A stretch of DNA of 64,000 bases, taken from the NCBI GenBank assembly GCA_044360195.1, contig JBIKKT010000005.1, positions 5,744 to 69,743 of the forward strand. The letters are read 5' to 3'. This document shows, in pieces, positions 1,267 to 16,513 of the stretch (within the stretch, counting starts at the first letter, position 1; every line of letters begins with the position of its first letter). A program made the translations under genes and the position numbers. The stretch comes from Bdellovibrionota bacterium (GTDB taxonomy: Bacteria; Bdellovibrionota_C; UBA2361; OMII01). The notes below the pieces were generated by a model. It did not search any database, had not been told where the DNA came from, and saw nothing but the letters and a program-made list of their open reading frames with translations.

Positions 1267-1800
1267 CTACTCCCGAGCGCTCAAAAAGCCCTCAACTTCG
1301 CCCACATGCGGTGTCACTACTCGAACGATACCCTGCGGATCGATCACCACGACGAACGGAATTGTGTGCCCCTTAAAATGAAGAAACGCTTCGTCTTGCA
1401 CATCATTACCTGAGAAACAGTGCTGGATAGAATGAAGCCCCTGCGAGTCAATACGCCCCTTCAACGTTTCAAAATCGTCGTTCTTATCGATACTCACCGC
1501 AAAAAATGAAAGGTGGGACTTGCCGTCGAACTGATGAGCGAGACGCTCATAATCCTCAACTACATATCGAGATCGTGGGCACCACGTTGCCCAAAAAAGA
1601 ACTACATGCATCTTTCCCGCATCCGGCGTGAGGGGAATCTGACTACCATCGAGCAGCATTAGTCGTGACCACGGGACTGGTTTCCCCTCTAGCTCGGTAG
1701 TTCCTGGAGACACCACAGCGCACCCAACAAAAACCCAAGCGACAAACGCAAGCGCCATCAGAGTACGAGAGGCCATCCATGCAAAACGGCACAACCTCAT
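1267..1800 (-). CDS. TlpA/redoxin-family thiol-disulfide oxidoreductase-like lipoprotein
   Basis: Thioredoxin-fold motif VVLFWATWCPRS. N-terminal signal peptide with lipobox (AFVAWVFVGCAV). ATG at 1800 lies 4 bp after the upstream gene's stop. The longer track ORF reaching 2034 overlaps that gene and was rejected. Confidence 0.7.
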   Translation of the reverse strand: MRLCRFAWMASRTLMALAFVAWVFVGCAVVSPGTTELEGKPVPWSRLMLLDGSQIPLTPDAGKMHVVLFWATWCPRSRYVVEDYERLAHQFDGKSHLSFFAVSIDKNDDFETLKGRIDSQGLHSIQHCFSGNDVQDEAFLHFKGHTIPFVVVIDPQGIVRVVTPHVGEVEGFLSARE

Positions 1801-1804
1801 CAAT

Positions 1805-4165
1805 TTAGCGATCTTTAAGATGTCGCTCATACGCTGCAATAACATCTGGATCCTTCTCGTCTGGATACAACTCGAGGGCACGTTTTCGAACGCCCACATC
1901 TTCAGACCGACCCAACACCTCGATCGCTCCAATCTTAACCTTTGGCCCCCCACGCTCAAGCATCTCAAACAGCAACTCTGATTCGAGCGCTTTCCCGAAA
2001 TGATGCAGAAGCTCCGTGATAACGCGGTCCGCATGCGCCCCCAGCAAGGAACGGATTACCCCATTCCACTGATCAGACAGATCAATGCCTCCTACCGCCT
2101 TTGAGATCTCATCATCCGACAACTTAGCATCTAATACCACAGCTGCTACAAGCCGTGCCGCCTGCGCCTTGTCAATCTCACTTGCTGCACGAACAGCAGA
2201 AACGATGGATACCACCGAGGGATCGGTAGACGGCTTGGCCGCCATGATATCGAAAGCGGTTACGGCTAGCTGTGCATCATCTGTCGATAACGCCACCAGC
2301 AAAAGAACACGCGTTACTGAGGTAGAATTCCATCCCCCAAAAGCAGTCAGGTCCTTGCGCGTCGGCCCTAACACAGCACAGTTAACGAGAGCGATTCTGA
2401 CCGGAGCAGGAATAGCGACTGAGGTGTCAAGTTCTCTCAGAAAAAGAGACCGCGGGCCAGCAACTACTTGACGCGTTAGAAGCACTCCGACCATCTCGTT
2501 GGCGAGCGGCGCACTTGTCATAGAAAGCTGATTCACAAGCCAAATGAGATCTTCGTCAGGAATTCGTCTAACGTGGGGTCGTATAGCATCGAGAAAGGTG
2601 CTTGCAAGATCAGGCAGCGCAAGCCCAAGAGCAAAAAGCGATCGCTTCTCACCACCCTTGATGCTCCCGCTATCTTTGGCACCTCGGGCGACGATAGCCC
2701 TATACGGCTCACTAGAGTCGAGGTCCAGTGCCACGGCCATCGCTAACCGCACGGCTAGAGCTGGCTGCTCTGCATAGAGTTCTGAAAGCATCTGAACGCG
2801 GGGCTCGGCTGGAACCAAGGGGTCTATGATACGCATCAGGCGCTCAAAAACGACCCCTGATGGAATAGTTCCCTGCAGTTTACGCTTCCAGATGTTCACT
2901 TGCTCTGCGCTTAACGGAAGACCCATACGCTGCGAACGTGAGAGGATCCCTTCAACTATAAAATCTCTCTCCACAGGTTCAGTAACAGCGCGCAACCTCC
3001 GGAGTAATACGTCGTGAGCTAGCGGATCTTCCGAAGCAAATATCTTACGTAGCTGGTCCTTCTGCTCATCCCATCCAGCGCCTACGCTAACGTCAAGAGT
3101 CACATCCTCTGGCACATCCTCAAGAGCCATCTGTCGGTTAGCCTGAGCTGTAACCGAATTAAACACTGCTCGACCGATGAACAGAACTGCAAGTGCGCAC
3201 ACTCCGGCAGCCACGAGTGTGCGCCGCGAACGTAGAGCCATGCGCATCCAGACCGACTTTGACACTCGGGGATCACGTTCTTCCCCTAGAACCGAAGAGA
3301 GCTTGATCTGCGTCAAGCCATCACGCTGCTCACGCTGCAGCATCTTCTCTTGCTCGACGAGCACTGGTGCAAGCTGTGCTGTCAGCTGGTGATCTTTAAA
3401 AACCCTAAGGCGCTCCAATAAAACACCCGCTGAAATCGGCAAATCATCGCGCTCAGCTACAAGCAAAGGCGTAATCAGCTCGTCGACCCACGCTGGACAC
3501 CCGGAGCTAAAGGAAGAAACAGGAGGAACAATACCCTGATCAACCGATGGGTAAACGCCTGCGAACAGGCGGTACCCGAGCACTAGCAAAGCATACACGT
3601 CATCTACTGCTGTTGGAGGAGCACTATCCACCCTACCCTGTTGGTACACCGCGTATTCGCTACGCTCTGATTCCGTAAGCTCACCACTCGAGCGCACTGT
3701 CGGAGCTACTCCAATAAATCGAACAGTGCCATTTCGATTAATAAAAAAAGACTCACTACAGATCGTTCCAATCACCAGCCCAACATCATGGATGCGTGCC
3801 ACAGCTCGAAGGCTCATGAGGTAGCGGCGCTCTCGCTCCCTCATATCCGCAGGCTCAGCTGTGATCTTCACTCCATCGAGATTGGACAGTGCAATAAAAC
3901 CAACCCCGTGCGCATCGACTCCGAATGAACGAATATCTGAGCCACCAATCTTGTCGCGAAATTGCTCTAACCTCTGGGAGAACCCTGCGGCTTCAGCCGG
4001 TGCAAGGGACTCTCTCGTAACCCACAGGCCCACACTTACGCGATTAGTCCTATCTAATGCTTTAAAGAGGCGTGCCCCCGGAAGGTGCCCACACTGATAT
4101 TCGAGCAGGAAGTATTCACTGACCGCACCCGGTAACCTTAATAGAACTCCACGTTCTTCAGACAT
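1805..4165 (-). CDS. membrane pseudokinase: degenerate Hanks-type kinase-like domain, one TM helix, and a large HEAT/ARM-repeat domain
   Basis: N-terminal region aligns to the Ser/Thr kinase fold (IHDVGLVIGTICSESFF, RFIGVA, DVYALLVLGYRLFAG). It lacks the VAIK lysine, the HRD catalytic aspartate and the DFG aspartate. TM segment TLVAAGVCALAVLFIGRAVF. C-terminal HEAT-like repeats (KIGAIEVLGRSEDVGVRKRALE). Confidence 0.6.
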   Translation of the reverse strand: MSEERGVLLRLPGAVSEYFLLEYQCGHLPGARLFKALDRTNRVSVGLWVTRESLAPAEAAGFSQRLEQFRDKIGGSDIRSFGVDAHGVGFIALSNLDGVKITAEPADMRERERRYLMSLRAVARIHDVGLVIGTICSESFFINRNGTVRFIGVAPTVRSSGELTESERSEYAVYQQGRVDSAPPTAVDDVYALLVLGYRLFAGVYPSVDQGIVPPVSSFSSGCPAWVDELITPLLVAERDDLPISAGVLLERLRVFKDHQLTAQLAPVLVEQEKMLQREQRDGLTQIKLSSVLGEERDPRVSKSVWMRMALRSRRTLVAAGVCALAVLFIGRAVFNSVTAQANRQMALEDVPEDVTLDVSVGAGWDEQKDQLRKIFASEDPLAHDVLLRRLRAVTEPVERDFIVEGILSRSQRMGLPLSAEQVNIWKRKLQGTIPSGVVFERLMRIIDPLVPAEPRVQMLSELYAEQPALAVRLAMAVALDLDSSEPYRAIVARGAKDSGSIKGGEKRSLFALGLALPDLASTFLDAIRPHVRRIPDEDLIWLVNQLSMTSAPLANEMVGVLLTRQVVAGPRSLFLRELDTSVAIPAPVRIALVNCAVLGPTRKDLTAFGGWNSTSVTRVLLLVALSTDDAQLAVTAFDIMAAKPSTDPSVVSIVSAVRAASEIDKAQAARLVAAVVLDAKLSDDEISKAVGGIDLSDQWNGVIRSLLGAHADRVITELLHHFGKALESELLFEMLERGGPKVKIGAIEVLGRSEDVGVRKRALELYPDEKDPDVIAAYERHLKDR

Positions 4166-4190
4166 ATGCGTGTGCTATGCTCCGAGGGGG

Positions 4191-15136: not shown

Positions 15137-15151
15137 ACGTCCCCATGCCCC

Positions 15152-16114
15152 TTAAAAAAAATGCTTTGCGAGAAACCCTGCTGTAGTTACCACTGCGACA
15201 AATCCGGCCACCACCAAAGAGAGAACCAGGTGCTTTCCTAGACCGCGCCCCACACTTTCAGCTCGTACTTTTGGCGGTTTTGCAACGACAGACCCTGGTG
15301 CGCGTTTAACGGCAGGCTTGCGAGTCTTTTGCGCCGCTGGGGGAGGCGCTACTCGTAGCTGACCGGCCAACGGAATGATAGAGACTGTGATATTGTCGTA
15401 CCCTCCGCGGGCTTTAGCGAGCTCAACCAACTTGACACACGCCGACTGCGGCGAATGCGTGCACACGATCTGCGAGATCTCCATTTCAGCCACCAAACTG
15501 TAGAGACCGTCAGAGCAGAGGAGCACTCTATCATTCACATCTCCTGGCTTTGTGCCCCATACCCATAGCTTTCGAACGTCAACTTCAAGACCAGGTTCAG
15601 CACCGATGCAGCGGGTCAGGATATGTGCATCGGGATGCGCCAACGCTTCCTCTGGCCCAATCTCTCCACGCTCAACGAGTTGCTGCACGAGGGTATGATC
15701 AACCGTAAGCTGCTGAATTGCTCCATCTCGAATAAGATAAGCTCTAGAATCTCCGACATTGGCTACCGCAACCTCTGAGCCACTAAAGAGCAACGCAACA
15801 GCGGTGGTCCCCATAGATGCAAATGCTTGGTTTTGTCGCCGCAGAACTATCACGCGATTAGCTTCTATCAGTGCGTTACGCAGAGCCACCTCCGGAGGCA
15901 TTGCTTGCTGCTTTGACAGGTCTCGCTTTACGGCATCTATTACCAACTGAGCCGCAAGCTCTCCGCCAGTCGCGCCCCCCATCCCGTCACACAGGATCCA
16001 GGCGACGCCCAGAGCACATTCAATGACAGCGTAGCGATCTTCATTGAGATCTCTTTCGCAACCCGTATCGGTTATGGCAGCTGGAATGGTGGCGTCTTCG
16101 TGCTCCGAATTCAT
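15152..16114 (-). CDS. PP2C-family Ser/Thr protein phosphatase with a C-terminal TM anchor
   Basis: TDTGCERDLNEDRY, ILCDGMGG, GTTAVALL, VANVGDSRAYL, LLCSDGL. C-terminal TM LVLSLVVAGFVAVVTTAGFL. The track ORF extends to 16366. The preferred start is ATG 16114 (MNSEHED...), which puts the first PP2C motif about 17 aa from the N-terminus. Confidence 0.8.
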   Translation of the reverse strand: MNSEHEDATIPAAITDTGCERDLNEDRYAVIECALGVAWILCDGMGGATGGELAAQLVIDAVKRDLSKQQAMPPEVALRNALIEANRVIVLRRQNQAFASMGTTAVALLFSGSEVAVANVGDSRAYLIRDGAIQQLTVDHTLVQQLVERGEIGPEEALAHPDAHILTRCIGAEPGLEVDVRKLWVWGTKPGDVNDRVLLCSDGLYSLVAEMEISQIVCTHSPQSACVKLVELAKARGGYDNITVSIIPLAGQLRVAPPPAAQKTRKPAVKRAPGSVVAKPPKVRAESVGRGLGKHLVLSLVVAGFVAVVTTAGFLAKHFF

Positions 16115-16513
16115 CCCCTCTTGCCTCTGTTGTTCATCAACATGCATGTGCGACACACTCGACACGTCTCTGTCTACTTGGTGGTACAACTTCCCGACTA
16201 CGCTAGGTAGACACCCCTCATAAAGTGCCTGAATGGAGAGTCGGCAGATGCATGGGCGTACTAAATACTCGTACCCTTTTGATTTAATGAAATGTGGGGG
16301 ATAAAGCCTTAAAACGACCTTTGCGTGGTTAGACATCCGCGCTGCCTGCGGGAGATTAGCGGGCAAGCCTCGTTCAATAAGACTGATAAGTAGTTGTTTT
16401 AACTATACCAATCGCAGAAAAGCACTTACAAAGCACTATCCATCGCAATATCGACTTGCCTCCTACCCGGTAATAGCTAAAGCTCATAAGGTTGTTTGAT
16501 TATGTGAGGTTTC

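Follow-up and report, generated by a model that had tools for sequence, protein, structure and literature searches.

The stretch of DNA analysed here (the window) comprises 64,000 nucleotides of contig JBIKKT010000005.1 from a Bdellovibrionota bacterium (GenBank assembly GCA_044360195.1, positions 5,744 to 69,743 of the forward strand). On its minus strand, between positions 1267 and 16366, the genes of a Tad-like pilus machine run directly into a gene for an export-gate protein of the T3SS (type III secretion system) family, which is followed by psK, a gene for a putative membrane pseudokinase. Comparison with related genomes indicates that the export-gate gene is the sctV of a needle-less T3SS-like apparatus, and not an isolated add-on to the Tad machine. 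Two machines hitherto known to cooperate only in prey killing by Myxococcus (as the Kil and T3SS* systems) appear here to be linked at the level of their genes. Gene content, conserved gene order, the complementarity of loci in two genomes and the constraint on sctV are all observed. Their best explanation is that uncultured Bdellovibrionota have an envelope apparatus in two parts, one of them encoded in the window and the other elsewhere in the genome or, in basal relatives, downstream of psK. We consider that the locus probably encodes a coupled, phospho-regulated Tad/T3SS-like contact apparatus.

A first-pass annotation, made from the sequence alone, had described a secretin-less, non-canonical Tad locus joined to a kinase/FHA/PP2C cassette and to a T3SS-family gate. 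This core reading was right in outline. What it had missed is that the gate gene belongs to a T3SS-like apparatus whose other components are encoded in relatives.

The export-gate gene and its partners in related genomes

The export-gate protein (702 aa, encoded at 4191-6299) matched the Pfam FHIPEP family with 595 bits. The match runs end to end (2-655 of the 657 profile positions), with the transmembrane as well as the cytoplasmic domain represented, and the cytoplasmic loop including the GDAIAG motif is intact and conserved. The NCBIfam model for SctV scored higher (579 bits, cut-off 692) than that for FlhA (TIGR01398, 524 bits, cut-off 772), both scores lying under the equivalog cut-offs. 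Of the solved relatives Yersinia YscV (7alw) was the best match at 380 bits, with SsaV at 319 and three FlhA structures at 264-320; these bit scores taken alone are ambiguous between SctV and FlhA. Beyond the lineage itself, the next relatives of its SctR are annotated as SctR (Myxococcota, Thermoanaerobaculia) and not as FliP, and no flagellar genes adjoin the FHIPEP gene in about 35 loci. From these comparisons we concluded that the window protein is probably a deep-branching SctV of non-flagellar type. Its gene is under strong purifying selection, the ratio of non-synonymous to synonymous substitution rates (dN/dS) being 0.047 against the 88%-identical orthologue in locus L006.

The window itself contains no further part of such an apparatus that we could detect. 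A Pfam scan of essentially all non-overlapping open reading frames (ORFs) of at least 120 aa in the 64 kb found no other T3SS or flagellar family, and hidden Markov models (HMMs) built from the T3SS-like proteins of relatives gave no match in the window or in the flanks of loci with the same layout, except to the FHA protein discussed below.

In relatives the partners of SctV were found, in two layouts. L035, the most divergent relative, shows the contiguous layout: the genes that come after psK, on the same strand, encode an SctD-like protein (two FHA domains and Yop-YscD_cpl), a zinc-ribbon FHA protein, SctJ (a YscJ_FliF lipoprotein), SctQ (FliMN_C), SctR (FliP), an 89-aa SctS, a membrane protein of the size of SctT, SctU (Bac_export_2) and a tetratricopeptide repeat (TPR) protein. 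This layout is complete in L035, L031 and L048, and is present from sctV on in L059 and from psK on in L056; L016 and L036 are also of this type but their contigs end shortly after sctD. The order tadC-sctV-psK-sctD is kept on one strand with gaps of about 20-105 bp. A FliJ/SctO-like stalk gene lies between sctJ and sctQ in one of these loci (L048:8407-8883).

In two genomes with the second, window-type layout the T3SS-like genes were found apart from the Tad operon. Assembly JBGSMV01 carries a window-type cluster on contig 52 (L030), and on contig 20 (L063) a T3SS-like cluster with genes for a small FHA protein, a response regulator, SctD, an FHA-like protein, SctJ, two small ORFs, SctQ, SctR, SctS, SctT and SctU. 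Assembly JAYRHW01 likewise has a window-type locus (L021) and a separate T3SS-like cluster (L064), the latter with a TPR protein and sigma factors in addition. Neither L063 nor L064 contains an FHIPEP gene, and the only sctV seen for the T3SS-like apparatus in these two assemblies is the copy in the Tad operon. The tetranucleotide correlation was 0.925 within each pair (L030/L063 and L021/L064), the highest values of the matrix, which supports a common genome of origin for each pair despite their provenance from metagenome-assembled genomes (MAGs). The pairing came from P0172 and P0156; the loci of four other SctR homologues fell in assemblies different from those with window-type clusters, and those SctR-bearing contigs that had enough context were mostly of the contiguous type. 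A scan of metagenomes with the SctR profile yielded six loci, one of them long and contiguous, and added nothing on split clusters. The T3SS-like genes can scatter further, as in L047, where sctRSTU and the TPR gene stand alone.

The T3SS-like clusters appear to be reduced. Their SctU-like proteins (224-260 aa; L035:20074-20820, L031:9225-9932, L048:11710-12453, L063:11704-12381, L064:11494-12168 and L047:11826-12608) match Bac_export_2 only over its N-terminal membrane region and show no NPTH motif; it therefore seems that the substrate-switch (autocleavage) domain has been lost. No SctN/FliI-type ATPase, SctL, secretin or needle gene was detected in any T3SS-like locus examined, with about 10 kb searched on each side. 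Genes of the sigma-70 family (Sigma70_r2/r4) and a conserved small ORF regularly follow the TPR gene (L047:8582-9331 and 13832-16027; L048:14406-16225; L064:13382-15465; L031:11007-13040), and these may be dedicated regulators. In assembly JAOQFC01 a flagellin gene (Flagellin_N/C, L052:9390-10208) lies 8 kb from the T3SS-like cluster, which suggests that some members of the lineage are probably flagellated and have a separate FlhA.

In midpoint-rooted neighbour-joining (NJ) trees of SctV and CpaF, crude in both rooting and method, the contiguous loci (L035/L036 and L016) were basal and the window-type loci formed a derived clade. This suggests, tentatively, that one contiguous block is ancestral, that sctD-sctU later moved away while sctV and psK stayed with the Tad genes, and that the redoxin gene found after psK in the window was added.

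The block that includes sctV is widely kept. The closest FHIPEP homologues come from MAGs throughout, and MAGs of this kind occur in data from Lake Mendota and from activated sludge. A psK profile run against GTDB species representatives gave 33 loci with extensive matches. Apart from one partial match, they come from MAGs that bear the names Bdellovibrionota, Bdellovibrionales or Oligoflexia, or older or more generic ones; one of the genomes is a complete 2.28-Mb MAG (CP129486.1). When 12 window proteins were used in tblastn searches, the order Ser/Thr kinase (STK)-TadZ-Flp-CpaB-CpaF-TadB-TadC-SctV-psK(-redoxin) was found in about 30 Bdellovibrionota loci, in every one that was long enough, with FHIPEP proteins down to 35% identity. 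The synteny is therefore conserved in relatives, a point that the first-pass annotation had singled out for checking. The block persists despite a different downstream flank in L007, L022, L023 and L033, and in no fewer than 23 genomes at species level sctV is separated from its T3SS partners but keeps its place within the Tad operon. Across loci L001-L037 identity to the window proteins was 65-83% for TadZ, 62-85% for CpaF and 35-88% for SctV, and 25-40% for psK, save for a fragment in L006 with 80%. No protein of the cluster is more conserved than TadZ, which is nearly level with ClpX (75-87%). Evolutionary rates within one operon thus differ strikingly, TadZ and CpaF being slow, SctV intermediate and psK the fastest to diverge.

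Other genes of the locus and the window

The locus consists of 12 genes on the minus strand. Strand and coordinates agree with the first-pass annotation, which had counted 11 genes, and every gene that it had named is present in its place. Between cpaF, tadB, tadC, sctV, psK and the redoxin gene the intergenic gaps are, in that order, 3, 7, 21, 25 and 4 bp, so that the ORF coordinates confirm the spacing of 3-25 bp given earlier for this stretch. Such tight spacing suggests a single transcript for the Tad platform, SctV and psK, and we infer one that runs from cpaF to the redoxin gene. Directly beyond the redoxin end of the cluster lies tig (6-1040).

A Tad core set is present. It comprises a TadZ/CpaE-like ParA/MinD ATPase (11264-12508; Pfam AAA_31, CbiA and ParA, NCBIfam CpaE-homologue and MinD) with a KGGVGAT motif and an N-terminal extension (residues 1-134); a 55-aa Flp-type prepilin (10886-11053; Flp_Fap, 2.2e-10, 40.6 bits, cut-off 32.2) whose processing site, ERG/ASLVEYALL, fits G/XXXXEY; a CpaB/RcpC periplasmic pilus-assembly protein (9924-10775; RcpC, SAF and TIGR03177 pilus_cpaB, 124.8 bits, above the cut-off of 71); a CpaF/TadA-type secretion ATPase (8236-9786; T2SSE, 2.4e-31; TIGR03819 TadA-family ATPase, 210 bits); and the inner-membrane platform proteins TadB-like (7249-8232; T2SSF, 4.6e-14) and TadC-like (6321-7241; T2SSF, 2.6e-11). 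The pilin region varies among relatives: L003 has two tandem Flp genes (359-810), and L002 an additional 108-aa ORF between tadZ and flp (4616-4942). CpaF (in an N-terminal extension of about 110 aa, rich in Ser and Pro), TadB and TadC (in N-terminal cytoplasmic stretches) carry Ser/Thr/Pro-rich, apparently disordered extensions, which are candidate kinase substrates and FHA ligands.

As the first-pass annotation had stated, the gene order is unlike the canonical flp-cpaABCDEF-tadBC, and no secretin, A24 prepilin peptidase or TadE/F minor pilin was found in the Pfam scan of window ORFs; short minor pilins could have escaped, because shorter ORFs were not scanned. The same components (RcpA/CpaC, TadV/CpaA, TadE/F) were not found among the called genes of related loci. 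Nor do they sit just outside the window, which would have made this an ordinary Tad locus: 48 kb are visible on one side of the cluster, tig lies on the other, and relatives continue there with clpP-clpX-lon. They may be encoded elsewhere in the genome.

The psK protein (786 aa, 1805-4165) has no Pfam match of its own; its homologues match Pkinase and HEAT_2. In an alignment with five homologues the aspartates of HRD and DFG and the Lys and Asn of the catalytic loop are replaced, the HRD site reading IGT in the window protein and CGD in relatives. An AlphaFold2 (AF2) model, built from a shallow alignment since the word-indexed homologue search gave six proteins, places a transmembrane helix at residues 314-348 and a confident all-alpha solenoid at 365-786. 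Its Foldseek matches were weak, to kinase domains and to ARM/HEAT proteins. The kinase-like region is poorly modelled (pLDDT below 50 for most of residues 1-190), so that the assignment as a pseudokinase rests mainly on the alignment. Alignment and model together identify psK as a predicted single-pass membrane pseudokinase with an N-terminal kinase-like and a C-terminal HEAT-like domain, much as had been proposed from the sequence. Clustered at 50%, the family numbers 302 representatives, almost all of them 770-880 aa long, and psK always follows sctV, in both layouts. After psK the window has a gene for a TlpA-like thioredoxin-fold redoxin (1267-1800; Thioredoxin_8, AhpC-TSA, Redoxin) with a WCPRS motif and an N-terminal membrane anchor; being anchored and TlpA-like, it is predicted to be periplasmic. 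This gene belongs to the window-type layout; of the contiguous loci, four were scanned for a redoxin, and none was detected there after psK.

On the other side of the Tad genes lies a set of modules like that of the threonine-phosphorylation pathway of the T6SS (type VI secretion system), complete as judged by sequence: a motif-intact kinase, a PP2C phosphatase and an FHA reader beside the machine. The Hanks-type Ser/Thr kinase (12519-13994; Pkinase, 1.8e-54, 185 bits; C-terminal transmembrane segment) retains its VAVK, HRDMKPEN, DFG and APE motifs and is predicted to be catalytically active, in agreement with the earlier assignment. The FHA protein (14027-15136; FHA, 3.7e-07, 30.9 bits) has a long, low-complexity N-terminus rich in Pro, Glu and Ser, presumably disordered, with the FHA domain at the C-terminal end. 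The FHA protein encoded between sctD and sctJ in T3SS-like clusters is its paralogue; HMM and tblastn comparison with the FHA_Zn protein of L035/L031 gave about 35% identity across the FHA domain. The PP2C-family Ser/Thr phosphatase (15152-16366; PP2C, 1.2e-17, and PP2C_2) carries DGMGG and DN motifs and a C-terminal transmembrane anchor. Its ORF is over-called: relatives of 324-328 aa align only from ORF residue 80, and the true start is therefore probably the ATG at 16114, giving a product of about 320 aa.

On the same strand as the cluster, and about 1.5 kb away from its PP2C end, there is a SpoIIE/RsbU-type PP2C phosphatase (17826-19031, 150 bits), beside an unannotated 158-aa ORF (17331-17807), also on that strand. 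The two could form a partner-switching module; any tie to the sigma factors encoded close to the relatives' T3SS-like clusters is no more than a guess.

Elsewhere in the window, a protein that combines two LysM domains with a GH108 lysozyme domain and with peptidoglycan-binding domains (61244-62827, plus strand) is encoded next to a subtilase (62881-63840, minus strand). By their domains these are wall- and protein-degrading enzymes of the kind expected of a predator. In a polysaccharide-synthesis cluster (28088-40139) several glycosyltransferases of the GT4 and GT2 families accompany a Bac_transf priming transferase; an ORF of 707 aa in this cluster (35797-37920) is unannotated. The sole marked dip in GC content (0.46 at 46-48 kb), where the GC skew also flips sign, lies beside an AAA_14/DUF4143 ATPase gene, and this region (45401-48000) may be a small foreign insert.

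Coupled, independent or chimeric machines

If the Tad and T3SS-like machines are coupled, the apparatus might work as follows. The Tad platform, SctV and psK would be made in step from one transcript. Assembly or firing would be gated by the kinase and the phosphatase, with FHA proteins as readers of their activity, the FHA domains of SctD among them. The T3SS-like gate would export substrates across the inner membrane, presumably powered by the proton-motive force because no dedicated ATPase gene was seen, and the Tad pilus together with an outer-membrane conduit would give contact and delivery, a parallel to the Kil/T3SS* prey-killing pair. The psK protein could be a scaffold that spans the membrane, its pseudokinase domain in the cytoplasm and, given the single-pass topology, its solenoid in the periplasm. 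Such a scheme would have the two machines physically coupled, and a role in predation or cell contact is suggested by the Myxococcus analogy and by the phylum.

Several results weigh against this reading. A scan of the locus for consensus promoters and terminators gave counts no higher than those of shuffled sequence, and is uninformative on operon structure. The complementarity of the two loci was seen in two relatives only and rests on MAG binning, and all carriers are uncultured MAGs. At no locus examined did we find an outer-membrane secretin, a prepilin peptidase, minor pilins or a T3SS ATPase, which bears on both the path through the envelope and the source of energy. Pfam gave no FHA match in the window CpaF, whereas Myxococcus KilF has an N-terminal FHA domain (PMC8460266). 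Finally, if the contiguous layout is ancestral, sctV may have been kept in the Tad operon by inertia and not by selection for coupling.

This last point leads to a reading that we regard as rather unlikely but worth serious weight, namely that the two machines are independent, that sctV and psK are relics of a split ancestral block, and that their adjacency to the Tad genes has no mechanistic meaning beyond shared transcription. The basal position of contiguous loci in the SctV and CpaF trees, the further scattering of T3SS-like genes in L047 and the conservation of much of the flanking gene order (tig-clpP-clpX-lon) all favour it; since that surrounding synteny is kept as well, conserved order is by itself weak evidence of coupling. 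However, sctV has been split from its obligate partners and yet stays inside the Tad operon in the 23 or more genomes noted above, closely spaced on either side and under strong purifying selection. In contiguous loci tadC-sctV-psK-sctD form one closely spaced series, and psK, for which no role is known in any Tad system or T3SS, is never parted from sctV in either layout. In Myxococcus, where the only analogue so far studied is found, the machines are functionally interdependent (PMC12075869). A closer union than simple coupling is about as doubtful as independence: in a single chimeric secretion machine, a T3SS gate stripped of ATPase, needle, secretin and switch domain would be docked through psK to the Tad platform; substrates would pass out of the cytoplasm by this gate, and the Tad pilus with its outer-membrane conduit would deliver them under Ser/Thr control. 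If true, this would be a hybrid of two secretion superfamilies in one operon, and natural genetic proof of the super-complex hypothesised for Kil/T3SS*.

Two further possibilities concern the gate itself. In T3SS assembly the FHIPEP nonamer assembles around an SctRST/U core, and this general knowledge speaks against an orphan gate, that is, loss of the rest of the T3SS-like apparatus from the window genome, with the FHIPEP protein left as an accessory ion-driven or docking ring of the Tad machine, taken over by a type IV filament system. It is true that no T3SS core gene was found in the 64 kb or in the fetched flanks of window-type loci, and that SctR-bearing contigs are mostly contiguous; but both of the window-type genomes that could be checked carry a T3SS-like cluster lacking sctV, and the window keeps an FHA protein related to that of the T3SS-like cluster. 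We therefore consider an orphan gate improbable. The proposal that an ordinary Tad adhesion pilus happens to stand beside a flagellar flhA draws on the likely flagellation of the lineage (L052) and on sources that label some relatives FlhA or FliP. This candidate was rejected, and we give it very little credence: the FlhA model scored below both the SctV model and its own cut-off, the partners in relatives are non-flagellar (SctD with an FHA/YscD cytoplasmic domain, SctJ, a TPR chaperone), no flagellar gene is adjacent at any locus, and with secretin, peptidase and minor pilins missing the Tad part is itself not ordinary. A coupled Tad/T3SS-like apparatus thus remains the reading we favour. 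The comparative genomics argues that the two machines may form a functional unit, and nominates psK, SctD with its FHA domains and the STK/PP2C/FHA switch as candidates for coupling them.

Comparison with known systems

The Tad part shares with canonical Tad/Flp systems (type IVc; tad of Aggregatibacter, cpa of Caulobacter) an Flp pilin with the G/XXXXEY site, TadZ/CpaE, CpaB/RcpC, CpaF/TadA, TadB and TadC. It differs in its gene order, in the lack of RcpA/CpaC, TadV/CpaA and TadE/F/G among the ORFs scanned in the 64 kb, and in carrying sctV, psK and the redoxin gene, preceded by the kinase/FHA/phosphatase cassette.

This cassette resembles PpkA-PppA-Fha1 of the Pseudomonas aeruginosa T6SS, in that the genes of a contact-dependent envelope machine are accompanied by those for a Hanks kinase, a PP2C phosphatase and an FHA protein. 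Here the machine is Tad/T3SS-like, and there is an extra membrane pseudokinase. The T6SS threonine-phosphorylation pathway has also been cited as a model for regulation of Kil (PMC8460266). With the chlamydial T3SS the apparatus shares its probably non-flagellar type, an SctD with true FHA domains, a presumed link to a Ser/Thr kinase and the dispersal of its genes over several loci; in Chlamydia the kinase PknD phosphorylates CdsD, an FHA-bearing SctD homologue (PMC2765968). The chlamydial injectisome, however, is complete, secretin, needle and ATPase included, and is not linked to Tad genes.

The closest parallel is with Myxococcus. The first-pass annotation had aptly likened the locus to Kil, and there is now an added reason for the comparison, since Kil works with a needle-less T3SS* (PMC12075869). 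Kil is a Tad-like, FHA-rich system encoded in two clusters (PMC8460266). T3SS* (mxan_2434-2464) comprises SctD/J/I/Q/R/S/T/U/V/N/L and LcrH-like chaperones; secretin, needle and translocon are missing from it (PMC10433427). Kil and T3SS* are found together at sites of contact with prey, where recruitment of T3SS* needs Kil, and it has been proposed that they form a joint complex whose pilus tips deliver the effectors of T3SS* (PMC12075869). In the 2025 papers this joint complex is put forward as a hypothesis for how the two cooperate (PMC12075869).

In these Bdellovibrionota, likewise, a Tad-type core (ATPase, two platform proteins, CpaB homologue and Flp-type pilin) with many FHA proteins is paired with a T3SS-like apparatus that has SctD/J/Q/R/S/T/U/V and TPR chaperones and shows no secretin, needle or translocon in the clusters examined. 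A Tad-like core, FHA proteins and a secretin-less, needle-less T3SS occur in one genome in JBGSMV01, in JAYRHW01 and in the contiguous loci. Like Myxococcus, the host is probably predatory and was formerly placed in the Deltaproteobacteria. Whereas the Kil and T3SS* genes are unlinked in Myxococcus, here sctV lies within the Tad operon, and in basal relatives all form one block. T3SS* has SctN and SctL, neither of which was seen in the clusters described here, and a further difference lies in SctU, which here lacks the NPTH autocleavage domain. A T3SS as unusually reduced as this, with no ATPase gene in its cluster and an SctU without the autocleavage domain, bears on the minimal needs of an export gate. 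The Kil clusters encode a secretin and a prepilin peptidase, and the window has neither. Conversely, psK, the TlpA-like redoxin and the STK/PP2C pair are absent from the Kil/T3SS* components named in PMC8460266, PMC12075869 and PMC10433427.

Full-text literature searches returned no paper on a Bdellovibrionota locus that combines Tad and T3SS genes, which is no proof of absence, and co-occurrence of Kil and T3SS* has been given as restricted to the Cystobacterineae (PMC12428579). The loci described here tie Tad and T3SS-like systems together by gene order in an independent phylum-level lineage, within a predatory phylum, and so widen the known distribution of the Tad/T3SS* pairing beyond one myxobacterial suborder.

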